Assembly (NCBI GenBank): GCA_963774445.1
Contig: CAVZFC010000035.1
Span: 133,470-197,469 of the forward strand
Source of the DNA: an uncultured delta proteobacterium
Lineage (GTDB): Bacteria > Myxococcota_A > Polyangia > Haliangiales > Haliangiaceae
DNA length: 64,000 nt
Reading direction: 5' to 3'
This document shows positions 20,959-57,022 of the stretch, piece by piece. Made by a program: the position numbers and the translations under genes. The notes beneath the pieces were generated by a model, which had not been told where the DNA came from, ran no database searches, and was given only the letters and a program-made list of their open reading frames with translations. Each line of letters starts with the position of its first letter. Position 1 is the first letter of the stretch.

Positions 20959-22567
20959 GTGCATCTCAGAATTTCCCTGTGGATCGTCATGGCCGTGAGC
21001 GCGAGCCACATCGCCGGCTGTGTCGGAATCGATGACGACGCTTCGGACGAGGTCGGCGTCACCTCGGCGCCGCTCTACGTCGCGAGCGACAAGATCTGGA
21101 AGGACAAACAGATCCCCGTCTGCTGGGTGAATCCCAGCAGATCGAACGCGGCCGAGCGGCAATGGGTGCGCGCCGCGGTCGAGCGGACGTGGGTGGCCGC
21201 GTCGGCGGTCACCTTCACCGGGTGGGGCACCTGCGCCCTGAATGCCCCGGGCCTGCACATCGTCGCCAAGGACGAGGGCCCGCATACCAACGGTCTGGGG
21301 TCGGCGCTGTCCGGCAGCCCCGCCGGCATGGTCCTCAACTTCACGTTCGCCAACTGGAACCAGAGTTGCCAGCAGACCCGCCAGGACTGCATCGAGAAGA
21401 TCGCGGTGCACGAGTTCGGCCACGCGCTGGGTTTCGCGCACGAGCAGAATCGACCCGACACGCCGAGCTGGTGTGACGCCGAGCAGGGCAGCAACGGCGA
21501 CGTCACCATCGGTGCCTGGGACCTGGACTCGGTGATGAACTACTGCAACCCGGAGTGGAACGGCGACGGCACCCTCAGTGCGACCGACATTCGCGGCGTA
21601 CAGGAGATGTACGGCGCCAACAGCGCGTTCCTCTATCCGTTGACCGGCTCGGGGTTCTGGACCTCCTCCGCGCGGTTCCCGCTGGCCAACGTGTGGCCGA
21701 GCCAGAAGTGGCTGACCGGCGATTTTGACGGCGACGGCGACACGGATCTGGTCAACGTCTACGGCTCGCCGGACGGCAAGGCGCGGGTATGGCTGCAGCT
21801 GGCCACGGGCTGGGGCTTCGACTACCAGAGTAGCTTGCAGACGATGGCCGGCTTCTGGGACGGCCAGCGCTGGTTGGTTGGTGATTTCGACGGCGACGGC
21901 AAGGACGACCTGGTGAACGTGTACGGATCGGGCGGCAAGGCGCGGGCGTGGGTCCATCGGTTGACCGGCACCGGGTTCGAGTATCAAACGAGCTTGCAGA
22001 CGCTGGCCGGCTTCTGGGACAGCCAGCGGTGGATGACCGGTGACTTCGACGGCGACGGCAAGGACGACCTGGTGAACGTGTACGGATCGGGCGGCAAGGC
22101 GCGGGCGTGGGTCCATCGGTTGACCGGCACCGGGTTCGCCTATCAGACGAGCTTGCAGACGCTGGCCGGCTTCTGGGACGGGCAGCGGTGGATGACCGGC
22201 GACTTCGACGGTGACGGCAAGGACGATCTGGTGAACGTGTACGGATCGGGCGGCAAGGCGCGGGCGTGGGTCCATCGGTTGACCGGCGGGGGCTTCGAGT
22301 ATCAGACCAGCTTGCAGACGCTGGCCGGCTTCTGGGACGGGCAGCGGTGGATGACCGGCGACTTCGACGGTGACGGCAAGGACGATCTGGTCGACGTCTA
22401 CGAGGATTTCGAACGACCTGGCCCGAGCGTGGGTGCACCGTTCGACCGGCTCCTCCTTCGAGTACCAGACCAGCCTGCAGACCCTGCAGGGCTTCTGGCC
22501 CAGCCAGGTGTGGATCACCGGCAACTTCAACGGCGCCGGCGGCGACGATCTGCTGACGATCTACTGA
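20959..22567 (+). CDS. Astacin-like (M12A) zinc metalloprotease lipoprotein with five C-terminal FG-GAP-like 53-aa repeats. An apparent frameshift sits near 22410 in the last repeat.
   Basis: Zn-binding signature HEFGHALGFAHEQNRPD and a Met-turn SVMNY. Repeat unit GDFDGDGKDDLVNVYGSGGKARAWVHRLTGTGFEYQTSLQTLAGFWDGQRWMT. The last unit continues in another frame (ORF 22370..22567) and ends ..DDLLTIY*. GTG start at 20959 with AAGGA upstream. Confidence 0.75.
21719..22520 (+). repeat. Five tandem 159-bp in-frame repeats. Units starting at 21880, 22039 and 22198 are more than 95% identical at the DNA level.
   Basis: Direct comparison of units, e.g. ggtgatttcgacggcgacggcaaggacgacctggtgaacgtgtacggatcgggcggcaaggcgcgggcgtgggtccatcggttgaccggc, recurring with period 159. 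Confidence 0.8.
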
Positions 22568-41969: not shown

Positions 41970-42009
41970 GAACGGGTGGGGAGGGTAGGAGCGGGGGAGG
42001 GGGCCGCTG

Positions 42010-43089
42010 CTAGTGCTTGGGCTTCTTGATCTTGGCGTTCTTGTCGATGCCGGACAGGACCTCGATCTTGATGCCGTCGGACAGGCCGGTCTTGATGTCG
42101 CGGCGCTCGAATTTTTGCGGCGCGGTCTCGACCTCGACGTACGGCTTGCCCTTGTCGAACTGCAGCAGGCTCTCGTCGATAGCCAGAACCTTCTCGCGGT
42201 GGTCCAGGACGATGTCGGCGTTGGCGCTGTAGTTGGCGCGGATGAAGACATTTTCCGGGACCTTGATGTTGGCCTTGATCTCGAACTGGATGGCCCCGTC
42301 CTGGAGCACGCCCTTGGGCGAGATGTACTCGAGCTTGCCCTTGAACGTCTGCTTCTCCAGCGCGCCGATGTGGATCACCAGATCCATCCCTTCCTTGATC
42401 TTGCCGACCTCGGATTCGTCAACGTTGCCCTGGAAGATCATGTCGTTCATGTTGGCGATCGAGGCGACGGTGGTGCCGGCGTTGAAGGTGTTGGACTCGA
42501 TGACCGACTCGCCCTGCTCGACCGGGACCGCCAGGACCATGCCCTTGACGGTGGAGCGGACCTGGGTGTTGGCCCGGCCGTTGCCGCGGGCGGCGCCTTC
42601 CTTGACCAGCTGGAGGTTGGACCGGGCCGCGTCGTATTCTTGCTTCCTGAGCTGGTAGTCGAACCGGAACTTGGTCAGCTCGACGTCGGAAATGACCTTC
42701 TGCTTGAACAGACCCTCGTGACGGTCGAGCTCCTGCTTGGCGTTGTCCAGGCTGATCCTGGCCTGCTTGAGGCTGGCTTCGGCGCGGTTCAGGGTGACCG
42801 AGTCGGGGATGATCTCGATCTCGGCGATCAGGTCGCCCTTTTCGATCGGGGTGCCCGGCTCGACGTCGAGCTTCTTGATGACGCCCGAGACGCGCGGCTT
42901 GATCTCGACCTCTTCGCGGGGAACGATGGCGCCGGTCGCGACCGTCTTGTTGACGATGTCGGTGATGGCCGGGCTGTCGGTCTCGTAGACCACCGGTTTG
43001 CTCTGCGACTTCTTGTACAGGAACAGGAGGGTCCAGGCGAAGGCGGCGACGATCGCCAGCCCGAGGACGATGGGGATTGCGCGTTTCAT
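42010..43089 (-). CDS. Efflux membrane fusion protein (HlyD/MacA family).
   Basis: N-terminal TM segment IVLGLAIVAAFAWTLLFL, a coiled-coil region, and beta-barrel motifs. It overlaps the upstream permease stop by 1 nt. Confidence 0.85.
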   Translation of the reverse strand: MKRAIPIVLGLAIVAAFAWTLLFLYKKSQSKPVVYETDSPAITDIVNKTVATGAIVPREEVEIKPRVSGVIKKLDVEPGTPIEKGDLIAEIEIIPDSVTLNRAEASLKQARISLDNAKQELDRHEGLFKQKVISDVELTKFRFDYQLRKQEYDAARSNLQLVKEGAARGNGRANTQVRSTVKGMVLAVPVEQGESVIESNTFNAGTTVASIANMNDMIFQGNVDESEVGKIKEGMDLVIHIGALEKQTFKGKLEYISPKGVLQDGAIQFEIKANIKVPENVFIRANYSANADIVLDHREKVLAIDESLLQFDKGKPYVEVETAPQKFERRDIKTGLSDGIKIEVLSGIDKNAKIKKPKH

Positions 43090-44339
43090 TATTCGGCCCT
43101 GAGTGCTTCCACGGGGTTGATGCGGGCGGCCTGGCGGGCGGGGAAGATTCCCGCGAGGCCACCGCTCACGATGAGGATCACGGCGCACAGGAGCGCCACG
43201 CTGATGTCGATCTGCGGGGCTGCGAAGACCGGGTTGTCCGGGATCAGCCAGCCGACCAGCGCCAGCAGCCCGACGCCGGCGATGATGCCCAGGTAGCCGG
43301 CCAGCGACGTCAGGACGATCGACTCCTGCACCACCAGCGTGATCACCGACCACGGGGTGGCACCCATCGCCTTGCGGATGCCGATCTCCTTGGTCCGTTC
43401 CTTGACCGTGATCAGCATGATGTTGCTGACGCCGATCACGCCAGCCATCAGCGTCATGATGCCGACGATCCACATGAAGATCTTGATGCCGCGGAACAGC
43501 ATGACCATCTTCATGAACTCCTTGTGCGCGTTGAACGAGCCGATGGCGTGCTCGTCCTTGGGCGAGATCTTGTGCCGCTCGGCCAGGAGCGCCCGCACTC
43601 GCTTCTCGATGACCTCGCCCGAGACTCCCGGCTTGCCGGTCATGGCGAACCAGCCGACCTTGTTGCCGAAGTTGAAGGCCTGCTGAAAGGTGGTGAAGGG
43701 AATGTTGATGGTGGTCTCTTGCCGGTCGCCCATGTCGCCCTTGGCGCGCGCGCGGTAGACGCCGACGACCTGAAAGTAGACCCCCTGGACGCGGATGTAC
43801 TGGCCGACCGGGTCCTCTCCGCGCTCGAACAGCAGGTCGGCGACCTGCTTGCCGATGACCGCCACCTTGCGCCGCTGGGCGATGTCCAGGTCGTTGATGA
43901 AGCGGCCCTTCTCGAAGCGCACCGACTGGATGTTGATGATGTCGGGGTAGTCGCCCATCACCTGGAAGTTGCCGGTCTTGCTGCCGTGGGTGACGTTGTC
44001 GCCGTCGCGAAAGCCACCCAGCTGGTTGCGCGGCGCCAGGTACTGCAGACCGTCAACCTTGGCGCGCAGCGCGTTGACGTCGTCGTTGTCGTACTCGACG
44101 TGGCGCCCGGGCGGCAGGCCGGCGAACGGCAGCGACGTGCGCTGGCCCCAGACGAAGACCGAGTTGGTGGCGAAGCCGCGCATGTTGCTGGAGACGCCGC
44201 GCTGCAGCCCGTCGCCGAAGCCGAGCATCGCCAAGAGCATCAGCATGCCCCAGAAGACGCCGAAAACGGTCAGCGCGGTGCGCAGCCGGTTCTTGCGCGC
44301 GACCGCGATGATCTCCTGCCATTTGTCCCAGTCGAGCAC
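43089..44339 (-). CDS. ABC transporter permease (FtsX/MacB-like).
   Basis: N-terminal TM segment, a large periplasmic domain, and the FtsX C-terminal 3-TM region ..KERTKEIGIRKAMGATP.. Confidence 0.85.
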   Translation of the reverse strand: MLDWDKWQEIIAVARKNRLRTALTVFGVFWGMLMLLAMLGFGDGLQRGVSSNMRGFATNSVFVWGQRTSLPFAGLPPGRHVEYDNDDVNALRAKVDGLQYLAPRNQLGGFRDGDNVTHGSKTGNFQVMGDYPDIINIQSVRFEKGRFINDLDIAQRRKVAVIGKQVADLLFERGEDPVGQYIRVQGVYFQVVGVYRARAKGDMGDRQETTINIPFTTFQQAFNFGNKVGWFAMTGKPGVSGEVIEKRVRALLAERHKISPKDEHAIGSFNAHKEFMKMVMLFRGIKIFMWIVGIMTLMAGVIGVSNIMLITVKERTKEIGIRKAMGATPWSVITLVVQESIVLTSLAGYLGIIAGVGLLALVGWLIPDNPVFAAPQIDISVALLCAVILIVSGGLAGIFPARQAARINPVEALRAE

Positions 44340-53840: not shown

Positions 53841-55376
53841 ATGCGTGGCGTCTCTGCGGGGCCCCTGATCCTGGTGCTGTTGGGCGCCTGCGGTGGTAGC
53901 AACGGCGGGGGCGGCGCGGATGCGGCGGTCCCTCCGCCGCCGAGCCTGGTCTGCGACGACCCGGCGCCGCCGGTCGATGTTTCCAGCCCGGACGCGGTCG
54001 TCGGCGACGGCACGCCGCAGAGCTGCACCGAGGAGGCGTTGACCGCGGCCGTCGCCGGTGGCGGGGTGATCGTCTTCGACTGCGGCGGCGCGCAGACCAT
54101 CACCGTGACCAGCGAGCTGCAGGTCGGCAGCGACACGGTGATCGACGGCGGCGGCTCGATCACCCTGGACGGCGGCGGCAAGAGCCGCATCCTGTCGGTG
54201 CCGTCGAGCTTCGAAAAAGACACGCCGCGGCTGACGGTGCAGCGGCTCACCTTCACCGGCGGCAAGTCGCCGGCCACCGGCGACGACACCGATCAGGGCG
54301 GCGGCGCGATCCACCTGCGCGGCGGATCGCTCACGGTGATCGACTCGGTCTTCCTCGACAACCAGGCGCCGGCGAGCGGGCAAGACGTCGCCGGTGGCGC
54401 CATCTACACCGTCGGCGGCGGCACCACGACCATCTCCGGCAGCCGTTTCTCCGGCAACCACGCCTCAAACGGCGGCGCTGTCGGCATCCTGCACACGCAG
54501 CTCACGGTGGTCAACACGGTGCTGACCGGCAACCAGGCCACCGGCAGCGGCGGCAACCCGGGCAACGGCGGCAACGGGGGCGCCATCTACATCGACGGCG
54601 TCGATCAGGATATTGCGCTGTGCGGGGTGGAGATCACCGACAACCAGGGCAACGCCTTCGGCGGTGGACTGTTCCGCGTGTCGAATAACGGCGTCGGCAC
54701 CCATCTCATCGACCGCTCGCTGATCCGCGGCAACAAGATTCCCGATCAGAGTCCGAGCAAGGCCGGCGGCCTCTACCTGCAGGGCGCGGCGATCGAGATT
54801 CGCGACTCGACCATCGCCGACAACCAGGCGCGCAGCGACGGCGGCCTGTTTGCCGGACCGAATTCGACCCTGGCGATGACCAACACCACGGTCGCCGGCA
54901 ACACCGCGCTGTCGAGCCTGGCCGGTGGCATGTCGATCGCCGACGGTGTCACCGGGACGATCCTCAACTGCACCTTCGCCGGCAACCGCGCCCCCGGCGA
55001 CGTCGCCTTTGCCGCCGCCACGGTGGGCGGGCAGGCGGTGACTCTGAAGAACACCGTCTTCGCCGGCCAGGAGGTCGGCAACGGCTACAACCCGATCACC
55101 TGCCGCGACCCGATGATCGACGGCGGCGGCAACCTGCAGTTCCCGGTCGCGCGATCCGGTGGCGGCTCCGACGATCCGGACGCGCTGTGCGCGTCGGGCG
55201 CGATGGTCGCCGACGCCCAGCTCGGCGCCCTCGCCGACAACGGCGGCCCGACCCCGACCGCGATGCCCGCCGCCGGCAGCCCCGCCATCGGCCTGGGCAG
55301 CGGCTGCCCGGCCGCCGATCAGCGCGGCGAGCCCCGCGCCGACCCGTGCACCAGCGGCGCCGTCGAAGCGCCGTAG
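53841..55376 (+). CDS. Lipoprotein with a right-handed parallel beta-helix (pectate-lyase fold) and a C-terminal choice-of-anchor/Pmp-like domain.
   Basis: Lipobox LILVLLGACGG. Repeated ..GGAI...S..T..V.F.N...GG.. beta-helix turns. C-terminal block ADAQLGALADNGGPTPTAMPAAGSPAIGLG..CPAADQRGEPR. Confidence 0.65.
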   Translation: MRGVSAGPLILVLLGACGGSNGGGGADAAVPPPPSLVCDDPAPPVDVSSPDAVVGDGTPQSCTEEALTAAVAGGGVIVFDCGGAQTITVTSELQVGSDTVIDGGGSITLDGGGKSRILSVPSSFEKDTPRLTVQRLTFTGGKSPATGDDTDQGGGAIHLRGGSLTVIDSVFLDNQAPASGQDVAGGAIYTVGGGTTTISGSRFSGNHASNGGAVGILHTQLTVVNTVLTGNQATGSGGNPGNGGNGGAIYIDGVDQDIALCGVEITDNQGNAFGGGLFRVSNNGVGTHLIDRSLIRGNKIPDQSPSKAGGLYLQGAAIEIRDSTIADNQARSDGGLFAGPNSTLAMTNTTVAGNTALSSLAGGMSIADGVTGTILNCTFAGNRAPGDVAFAAATVGGQAVTLKNTVFAGQEVGNGYNPITCRDPMIDGGGNLQFPVARSGGGSDDPDALCASGAMVADAQLGALADNGGPTPTAMPAAGSPAIGLGSGCPAADQRGEPRADPCTSGAVEAP

Positions 55377-55378
55377 GT

Positions 55379-55740
55379 CGCACCCTTCGACTGAGGGGGC
55401 CGCGCGTTGCGCGCCCCCCTCGCTCAGGGTGACCGGCTTGGATGGGCGGCGCGGAAGCGCTGTAGTGCACCCTTCGACTGAGGGGGCCGCGCGTTGCGCG
55501 ACCCCCTCGCTCAGGGTGACCGGCTTGGATGGGCGGCGCGGTCAGCCTGAGAACGGTTGTTTGGGGATGGATAGGGGGCCGGTCACCCTGAGCAGAGCGC
55601 GCGGAGCGCGCGGCGTCGAAGGGTGCAGCCGGTCAGCCTGAGAACGGTTGTTTGGGGATGGATAGGGGGCCGGTCACCCTGAGCAGAGCGCGCGGAGCGC
55701 GCGGCGTCGAAGGGTGCAGCCGGTCAGCCGGCCAGGTCTC
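55379..55740. repeat. Cluster of GC-rich palindromic elements: two direct copies of element A (period 88, starting near 55379 and 55467) followed by two copies (period 92, starting near 55541 and 55633) of an inverted, diverged version. It fills the convergent intergenic region.
   Basis: A reads gcacccttcgactgagggggccgcgcgttgcgcg.cccc.tcgctcagggtgaccggcttggatgggcggcgcgg. B reads gtcagcctgagaacggttgtttggggatggatagggggccggtcaccctgagcagagcgcgcggagcgcgcggcgtcgaagggtgcagccg, and its reverse complement contains gcacccttcgac..ctcagggtgaccggc. Each unit is itself hairpin-forming (GAGGGGGCCGCGCG/CGCGCCCCCCTC). Confidence 0.8.
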
Positions 55741-57022
55741 CCTGGCGGAAGCGGGTCACCTGCGAGATCGACGGGTTGATGTCGATCGAGCCGCCGCGGG
55801 CGTTGATGACCATGAGATCGCGCTGGCGGATCCAGGCCAGGAGGCCGATGACCTCGCCGACCAGCGGGATGCCGCAGGCGCTGGCGATGGCCGCCCCGGG
55901 TGAGCCGGGCGGCACTGGCGCCTCGCTGGCGATCGCCTTGATGCCGCGGGCCGCCGCCGCCAGGGCGGTGAAGGCGCCCACGCGCGGGCAGGCCAGCACG
56001 TTGCCCCGGGCCAGGAAGCGGTGGTCCCGCGCGCGCGCCATGATCAGCACGCACAGATCCTCCAGCTCGCGCGCGCGCTCGTCGAGCACCTCCTGCAGGT
56101 CGCCGCTGCCGGACACGACGTAGGGCACCCGCGCGTAGTCGCGCGCCACCCGCTCGAGCCCGGCCGCCAGCCCCAGCCGCTCGACCTCGTCCAGGGTGCG
56201 GTCGCGGAAGCGATGGTCGGCCAGCACCAGCTGCAGGTTGGCCAGCGCGCGCTCGACCGACGGGTCGCGGTGCTTGCGCAGCTGCTTGCGCACGCGATCC
56301 AGATCGCGCTGCAGGCTCTCCAGCCCGCCGGCCGCGGCCAGGCGCGGGCTCGGGTGCACGGTCGAGGCGTCGTCGGTCGCGGTCAGCGAGGGCAGGGTGA
56401 CCGCGCGTCCCATCGCCGCCCCCTGCACCACCGGCAGGCCGCGCAGCCTGACCGAGCGGCCGTTGGGCTCGCCGCGCTCGCGCCGCCGCTCGAGATCGAT
56501 CGCCGAGGCAAACGGCGCCGCCAGCGCGGTCGCCAGCGTGACCTCGGCGGACTCGAAGCCCTCGGCGTCGCCGCGCTGGAACACCAGCACGCCCACCGAC
56601 GCGCCGCCGTGGACCAGCGGCACCCCGAGGAAGGCGGGGAAGCGCTCTTCGCCCAGGCCCGGGATGTGTTTGTAGCGGGCGTCGCTGCGGGCGACCGCCG
56701 CCGTCACCGGGCGCAGGCACTCGGCGACGAAGCCGGTGATCCCCTCGCCGATGCGCAGCCGCGCGATGCCGATCGATCCGGCGGGAAAGCCGATGTTGCC
56801 GCGCATCACCAGCAGGTCGCCGTCGGCGCCGCGCTCGCGCACGTAGACGCTGACCACGTCGACCCCGGCGATGCGTCCGGCGTCGGCGCACATCGCCGAC
56901 AGCTTGTCCTCCAGTGGCGCGTTCTGCGCCGACTTCTCGATGAGCCGGAGGATGCCATCGATCCCTCGATCGCCGGCCGCGTGCACGTGGATGCGGAGGC
57001 CCGCCAGCGCTGGTTCGTTCAT
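55724..57022 (-). CDS. GAF domain protein with a PEP-utilizing-enzyme mobile domain. It looks like the N-terminal part of PtsP (EI-Ntr) but lacks the PEP-binding barrel.
   Basis: GAF-like N-terminus (..DVVSVYVRERGADGDLLVMRGNIGF..GEGITGFVAE..). C-terminal AFTALAAAARGIKAIASEAPVPPGSPGAAIASACGIPLVGEV resembles the PEP-utilizers swivel domain. Confidence 0.55.
   Translation of the reverse strand: MNEPALAGLRIHVHAAGDRGIDGILRLIEKSAQNAPLEDKLSAMCADAGRIAGVDVVSVYVRERGADGDLLVMRGNIGFPAGSIGIARLRIGEGITGFVAECLRPVTAAVARSDARYKHIPGLGEERFPAFLGVPLVHGGASVGVLVFQRGDAEGFESAEVTLATALAAPFASAIDLERRRERGEPNGRSVRLRGLPVVQGAAMGRAVTLPSLTATDDASTVHPSPRLAAAGGLESLQRDLDRVRKQLRKHRDPSVERALANLQLVLADHRFRDRTLDEVERLGLAAGLERVARDYARVPYVVSGSGDLQEVLDERARELEDLCVLIMARARDHRFLARGNVLACPRVGAFTALAAAARGIKAIASEAPVPPGSPGAAIASACGIPLVGEVIGLLAWIRQRDLMVINARGGSIDINPSISQVTRFRQGDLAG

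Follow-up and report, generated by a model that had tools for sequence, protein, structure and literature searches.

A probable orphan cluster of Ssn-like hairpin repeats between two convergent genes of an uncultured Haliangiaceae bacterium

The two genes discussed here converge on a short intergenic region that is filled with GC-rich repeats, and the question is what kind of element these repeats represent. The locus lies on contig CAVZFC010000035.1 of an uncultured delta proteobacterium (assembly GCA_963774445.1). The stretch of 64,000 nucleotides that we analysed is called the window, and all positions refer to it unless stated otherwise. The initial annotation of this region, which was made from the sequence alone, had seen a family of REP/MITE-like elements that probably acts as a bidirectional terminator.

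The repeat block occupies positions 55365-55729, is non-coding and is made up of two A units in tandem and, behind them, two tandem B units in inverted orientation. Its location between convergent genes was recognized correctly at the outset: the block lies exactly between the stop codon of a beta-helix gene (plus strand, TAG at 55374-55376) and the stop codon of a GAF gene (minus strand, 55724-55726). The A units start 4 nt and the B units 7 nt past the respective stop codon, and seen from the gene upstream of it each set is oriented in the same way. The features are as follows.

53841..55376, plus strand: beta-helix gene, 511 aa, signal/lipoprotein-like N-terminus, right-handed beta-helix (Pfam Beta_helix, E 3e-12)
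55381..55433, plus strand: core of unit A1, CACCCTTCGAC, 31-nt insert (T, 29-nt GC hairpin at 55393-55421, G), CTCAGGGTGAC; full unit 55380-55454
55445..55466, plus strand: decayed copy of the 3' end of the beta-helix gene including the TAG, GCGGCG-CG--GAAGCGCTGTA-GT (local alignment, Tandem Repeats Finder)
55468..55520, plus strand: core of unit A2, one substitution relative to A1; full unit 55467-55541
55541..55551, minus strand: extra 3' half-site CTCAGGCTGAC in B1, 41-nt sub-period (Tandem Repeats Finder)
55582..55625, minus strand: core of unit B1, CACCCTTCGAC, 22-nt insert (GCGCGC-tcc-GCGCGC hairpin), CTCAGGGTGAC; full unit 55539-55629
55632-55642, minus strand: second copy of the extra 3' half-site CTCAGGCTGAC, in B2
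55673..55716, minus strand: core of unit B2, identical to B1; full unit 55630-55720
55721..55729, plus strand: third copy of CGGTCAGCC (the other two at 55539 and 55630), overlapping the GAF stop codon
55724..57022, minus strand: GAF gene, 432 aa, GAF domain and a weak PEP-utiliser N-terminal match, 'PtsP-like'

The two direct copies of unit A (55380-55454 and 55467-55541) are identical at 74 of 75 positions. Tandem Repeats Finder extends the A array from 55365 to 55541 with a period of 87, 2.0 copies and 95% matches, and the last ~24 nt and the stop codon of the beta-helix gene form the start of this tandem repeat. The ~75-nt direct copies of the initial annotation are thus confirmed, but its period of 88 holds only if a 1-nt indel at the left edge is spanned. 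The two copies of unit B (55539-55629 and 55630-55720) are identical in 91 of 91 positions; here the program reports a period of 91, 2.1 copies and 100% matches, and the array runs out at 55721-55729 in the 9-nt start of a third copy, CGGTCAGCC. Two diverged inverted copies had indeed been described, but with a period of 92, and B is an inverted relative of A in two boxes only, GCACCCTTCGAC (12 nt) and GCTCAGGGTGACCGGC (16 nt), which are complementary at 100%. The inner hairpins are different: unit A carries a 29-nt GC hairpin, GAGGGGGCCGCGCG-ttg-CGCGCCCCCCTC, and unit B the 15-nt hairpin GCGCGC-tcc-GCGCGC. The 16-nt box is found 13 times in the window with up to 3 mismatches (2.4 expected) and the 12-nt box 6 times with up to 1 mismatch (0.6 expected). 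Close matches are confined to the block, which has four exact matches per box and one 16-mer with 2 mismatches.

The whole block folds into nested inverted repeats, with z-scores of -8.0 (plus strand) and -10.0 (minus strand) against shuffled sequences, as had been proposed for it. The further proposal that each unit is a strong hairpin by itself is valid for single A units as single-stranded DNA (z = -2.7 on the plus and -4.2 on the minus strand) but not for single B units, which are weak compared with GC-matched shuffles (z = -0.7 and -1.7). We agree that the block does not code for a protein, because the open reading frame 55159..55641 uses another frame than the Pfam-supported beta-helix gene and simply continues through the repeats. 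We also agree that it is not a CRISPR array, as the units directly adjoin each other without spacers. An integron attC site was rejected since RYYYAAC/GTTRRRY is not present, and the core of a hammerhead or another ribozyme since the invariant bases do not fit. A CsrA site was rejected as well: GGA is not conserved, since the three bases in question covary.

The two boxes define a motif that is not restricted to this genome. A search with the pattern CACCCTTCGAC-N(10-40)-CTCAGGGTGAC finds exact copies of all 22 specified core bases in at least 117 loci. More than a dozen phyla are represented, and several copies in one genome are common; by our own estimate about 2 matches are expected by chance under uniform base composition. 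Among the matches listed are Eremiobacterota, Bacteroidota, Ignavibacteria, Syntrophaceae, Nitrospinota, Gemmatimonadota, Zixibacteria, Acidobacteriota, Dojkabacteria and others. As the core is common to so many phyla, the motif family is not specific for a genome or a lineage. Most copies have a short form with a loop of 3-4 nt (AAG, AGG, TCCG, TTCG), and a minority carries a GC hairpin in the loop and has the architecture of the window units. The orientation of the motif is set by the asymmetry of the internal boxes CTGAGC / GTCGAA. The head GTCA, which is present in the window units (GGTCACCCTGAGC), usually pairs with TGAC, and its first base is preceded by G.

The hairpin is conserved as a structure. 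Using a pattern without a pairing requirement, we find that the three variable stem positions are fully compensated (CCC/GGG 160, TGC/GCA 14, GTC/GAC 12, TCC/GGA 10, TGG/CCA 7 and others). A further inner pair, C15-G19, is changed to G-C in 5 of 77 sequences. A covariance model, R1, was built from 77 motif instances. In the window R1 matches the two B units only (B1 at 55584-55625 with 20.8 bits and E 0.0011, B2 at 55675-55716 with E 0.0011). The A units were not reported, and their 31-nt insert probably exceeds the model window; because of this, their assignment to the motif class is based on the exact boxes.

According to crude calls of open reading frames the motif sites are mostly intergenic without a clear strand bias, and convergent intergenic regions are over-represented (41 of 118 motif sites). 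In many phyla half-sites are reiterated in tandem (L002, L005, L046, L087, L172 and other loci), whereby the 3' half and 7-10 nt recur with a period of ~16-21. Whole motif units also occur in tandem about 100 nt apart, with five copies in L172. This reiteration of half-sites and units suggests that the hairpins are prone to slippage. In 2.9 million viral contigs we found only 7 motif matches, none of them with a GIY-YIG gene, and carriage by phages is therefore not a major route. A literature search with DNA strings and with the peptide strings of spurious open reading frames returned nothing or only primers; the motif is presumably the source of many spurious 'hypothetical protein' calls in metagenomes.

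Is there a gene that travels with the motif? We clustered 781 open reading frames from the at least 117 motif loci listed in an all-against-all comparison. Among these loci the only recurrent small family directly beside the motifs is a GIY-YIG protein (PF01541) of ~100 aa, which is found in six Bacteroidota loci, in each case with motif copies on both sides. As an independent test we analyzed 80 metagenome loci which were picked solely by a GIY-YIG protein of ~95 aa. Within 200 nt of the gene, a total of 30 kb, the strict motif has 17 matches, compared with 1 match in the other 304 kb. With R1, 112 of 146 matches at E values below 0.009 are within 200 nt of the gene, which corresponds to 3.7 per kb versus 0.11 per kb. 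The density of the motif near the GIY-YIG gene is hence 33-170 times higher. R1 matches 57 of the 80 loci, and in 32 of them it does so on both sides of the gene. The upstream copies are mostly on one strand (45:12) and the downstream copies mostly on the other (38:17), so the gene is bracketed by an inverted pair; the median gap between motif and gene is 62 nt upstream and 44 nt downstream. Versions with a hairpin insert flank GIY-YIG genes as well (L158 and the Methylobacterium loci L201/L212). Thus, the motif class is associated with a gene for a small GIY-YIG nuclease. The window itself has no GIY-YIG open reading frame, and the block has no GIY-YIG similarity; a cognate nuclease of the window element is therefore assumed. 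A search for high-GC GIY-YIG genes aimed at Myxococcota returned Alphaproteobacteria only.

This arrangement has a known counterpart. SsnA is a single-domain GIY-YIG protein of 94 aa which binds the hairpin repeat NTS of Neisseria and cuts the adjacent single-stranded DNA; it is reported to act on neither double-stranded DNA nor RNA (Chenal et al., Nat Commun 2025, PMC11893778). In experiments of the same authors, homologues of SsnA cut single-stranded DNA beside their own flanking hairpin repeats. These repeats are termed Ssn-related motifs (SRM) and include the Neisseria Transformation Sequence (NTS, NTS/dRS3), and the layout NTS-ssnA-NTS is likened by the authors to the REP/RAYT system (PMC11893778).

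The partner proteins of our motif are homologous to SsnA. Their profile aligns with SsnA of N. gonorrhoeae over 85 of 94 residues (hhalign 99.2%, E 1e-19), and by tblastn the relationship is distant (39.5% identity, E 2e-4). They may belong to the Ssn clade (CDD cd10448), but they match the UPF0213 structures 1zg2 and 1ywl (E 2e-20) at least as well as SsnA, whereas SsnA alone does not match these structures. Both systems have short, GTCA-headed, multi-copy hairpin repeats which are mostly intergenic, both sets of repeats enclose a single-domain GIY-YIG gene of ~95 aa as inverted copies, their partner proteins are homologues, and both systems are widespread across phyla. The core lengths of 53 nt (A) and 44 nt (B) are in keeping with the ~20-50-nt imperfect inverted-repeat hairpins of SRM/NTS.

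The two systems also differ. The published SRM pattern HGTCWYN(0-2)YYVSBRHN(0-5)WNVSBRGN(0-2)RNCYNB, used as a regular expression, does match NTS-type repeats, which flank the GIY-YIG genes of Neisseria, Azospirillum and Rhizobium. It fails on both unit A and unit B, and on every motif beside the 80 GIY-YIG genes. The box-type consensus with its CTGAGC / GTCGAA boxes lies outside this pattern, its loop accepts GC hairpin inserts of 20-30 nt, and its partner proteins seem to form a distinct UPF0213-like subgroup. SRM/NTS repeats owe their orientation to a conserved, non-palindromic 5' head (CGTCA...), whereas the GTCA of the box type usually pairs with TGAC and follows a G. The strand layout around the gene appears reversed compared with Neisseria, although with a near-palindromic motif the equivalence of the strands is uncertain. 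The flanking gene that goes with SRM is found with the motif class but not at the window locus, where the element has no cognate gene nearby. As the published pattern fails, we treat the window element as an SRM-like variant and not as a proven member.

How did the block arise? The closest relative, from a Logan assembly (L118), has a GAF protein of 91% identity and the same two gene ends, and the element is absent. The initial annotation had proposed to compare the locus in related genomes for presence and absence, and such a difference is what we see. The relative shares the GGCTGAC at the end of the GAF gene, so this end is native. There the gap between the two gene ends is filled by an open reading frame of 160 aa with a signal-peptide-like N-terminus (L118:1631-2113), of which the window contains no trace or homologue. 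For the source genome this means an indel-prone site which can be filled either by a small gene for a secreted protein or by a block of repeats. More distant Myxococcota (Kofleriaceae and Polyangia, judging by source names) are not syntenic, have other neighbours and gave no R1 match in 80 kb. Since the close box matches in the window are confined to the block and R1 finds nothing in these 80 kb, the family may be rare here.

Between A1 and A2 lies a degenerate copy of the last codons of the beta-helix gene with its TAG, and A2 is therefore a local tandem duplication. On the other side CGGTCAGCC delimits the B repeat; its 9 nt are the microhomology where the copies of a 91-nt tandem duplication meet. 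As both gene ends are native, each unit pair originated by local tandem duplication and not by repeated insertion. Since the duplication of A the gene tail has acquired 6 differences in ~27 nt and the hairpin core 1 in 75. The slower decay of the core could, in our own reading, reflect selection or gene conversion.

These observations also bear on the REP/MITE label. Like a MITE the element is small, non-coding, repeated and able to fold. A MITE would, however, have terminal inverted repeats bounded by a target-site duplication, and these are absent from the block: the two ends of a unit are not inverted copies of each other, and the 9-nt direct repeat CGGTCAGCC marks where the copies of a 2.1-copy tandem array join. 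What holds of the earlier label is a family of hairpin repeats; what does not is its placement, as the core is shared by many phyla and the neighbouring gene codes for a GIY-YIG nuclease and not for a transposase.

Several other explanations have to be weighed. The block could be a classical REP/REPIN doublet which is mobilised by a REP-associated tyrosine transposase (Y1, IS200-like). REP/REPIN/BIME elements with their RAYT partner are likewise intergenic imperfect palindromes that form inverted doublets, here between convergent genes, and are prone to local reiteration; they too come with a single small nuclease-type gene flanked by repeats, and the resemblance of NTS-ssnA-NTS to REP/RAYT is noted in the Ssn report (PMC11893778). 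Even a GTAG precedes both A units. This GTAG, however, comes from the native stop codon of the beta-helix gene and, before A2, from the duplicate of it; the B units have none, and it is not a REP head. The REP partner is an HUH/Y1 transposase, but no transposase recurred among the 781 open reading frames of the motif loci listed; GIY-YIG did recur, and the motif density peaks around its gene. REPs are moreover species-specific, whereas the core of our motif is conserved across phyla. We therefore consider this explanation quite improbable. Somewhat better, though still unlikely, is a bidirectional terminator or 3'-end stabiliser of the convergent genes that evolved locally and has no link to a nuclease. 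The GC-rich hairpins directly past the stop codons (4 nt for A, 7 nt for B) with like orientation to the upstream gene, the very stable folds on both strands and the excess of convergent regions among the motif sites (41/118, a crude count) would suit such a function. But a search for intrinsic terminators (GC hairpin followed by a T/U run) found 0 sites on both strands of 54800-56300, and in the block no hairpin is followed by a T-run on either strand. Furthermore, the core with its flanking boxes and not merely a hairpin is conserved in sequence across phyla and covaries, the motif clusters around GIY-YIG genes, four copies exceed what termination needs, and in the relative both genes end in the same way although the element is absent. 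As it was stated initially, the bidirectional terminator is not supported, and it would be an atypical one.

About as unlikely as a terminator is a remnant of a decayed nuclease cassette, from which the GIY-YIG gene was deleted and the flanking repeats were left behind. Cassettes have motif copies on both sides, often reiterated, and the locus is clearly indel-prone. On the other hand, A2 and B1 abut (55541 and 55539) with no trace of a coding sequence or of GIY-YIG similarity in the block, and the orientation -> -> <- <- corresponds to a junction between cassettes and not to the two sides of one gene. The least probable explanation is that the block functions as RNA, in the form of a structured non-coding transcript. 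Covariation does support a conserved hairpin, and in our own reading of the sequence the internal loop of the GTCA strand can form tandem G.A pairs. Rfam, however, gave no match in 55300-55800 at E values up to 10, nothing relevant in the whole window at the gathering score and tRNAs only in 19 motif loci at the gathering score. The orientation of the motif relative to neighbouring genes is inconsistent, the half-sites are reiterated like products of DNA slippage, and SsnA is reported not to bind RNA (PMC11893778).

We suggest, with a probability of about 0.65, that the block represents a group of four orphan Ssn-like hairpin repeats of the box type, two and two inverted. The motif class may be written as (GT)CA-NNN-TTCGAC-[3-4 nt or inserted GC hairpin]-CTCA-N'N'N'-TGAC. 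By analogy with Ssn/NTS, the recognition element would be one of the two hairpin strands when it is exposed in single-stranded form. The cognate nuclease, presumably encoded elsewhere in the genome, would bind this hairpin and cut beside it, and repeats and gene together could form a selfish or domesticated module in the style of REP/RAYT. At the present locus the element was probably gained, or it may have replaced a small gene, and afterwards each unit was doubled through local tandem duplication. As the units start 4 and 7 nt past the stop codons with the same orientation per gene, an effect on the 3' ends of both convergent transcripts is possible, but it would be secondary, a putative by-product.

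A broader view, for which we see slightly less than even odds, is that the box-type hairpin (GTCA-NNN-CTGAGC...GTCGAA-N'N'N'-TGAC) and the UPF0213-like GIY-YIG protein form a separate cross-phylum branch of Ssn-like systems, which is missed by the SRM definition and by searches that start from SsnA. If so, the recognition core of 22 nt would hardly vary between more than a dozen phyla, the modular loop would tolerate whole inserted hairpins, and the Myxococcota block would be an orphan outpost. Already on the main reading, the vague label of a REP, MITE or terminator is replaced by a testable partner and mechanism, that is, a small GIY-YIG nuclease which by analogy may read hairpins in single-stranded DNA. 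Should the box-type motif be a distinct specificity class, the Ssn/SRM family would extend well beyond the published pattern, and another pair of enzyme and site for single-stranded DNA tools would follow.

We note some further observations on the GIY-YIG loci. In some loci the C-terminus of the protein is encoded by the motif itself (L033:4013-4037, L038:147-171, L071:5968-5993; ..HPSTGSG, ..QPSTGSG and ..SPFDSAQGD), and the stop codon lies inside or just past the repeat. On the Azospirillum lipoferum plasmid AZO_p3 (L209, 255506-255799) an NTS-type Ssn cassette with a GIY-YIG gene and four flanking SRM copies is located between sufB and sufC of the Fe-S cluster operon. The Planktothrix agardhii plasmid p1 (L207) has a GIY-YIG gene of the present family flanked by GTCATTCTGAG-type repeats between a MmeI-type restriction-modification gene and the DISARM gene drmA, hence in a defence island. 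In a Sphingomonas parapaucimobilis plasmid (L200) a GIY-YIG gene is located between nrdR and a gene for an RNA methyltransferase, and it is flanked by a further variant of the motif, GTTCAGGCTGAGCGAAGTCGAAGCCC / GCCCTTCGACTTCGCTCAGGGCGAAC, with the head GTTC in place of GTCA.

Two other regions of the window deserve mention. At 21700-22556 there is a tandem repeat of 159 nt with 5.3 copies (84% matches); the period is a multiple of 3, and the repeat is probably a 53-aa protein repeat inside a gene. The region 42001-44000 has a GC content of 0.63, compared with 0.67-0.76 elsewhere, and a strong negative AT skew (-0.17), and may be foreign or non-coding DNA.
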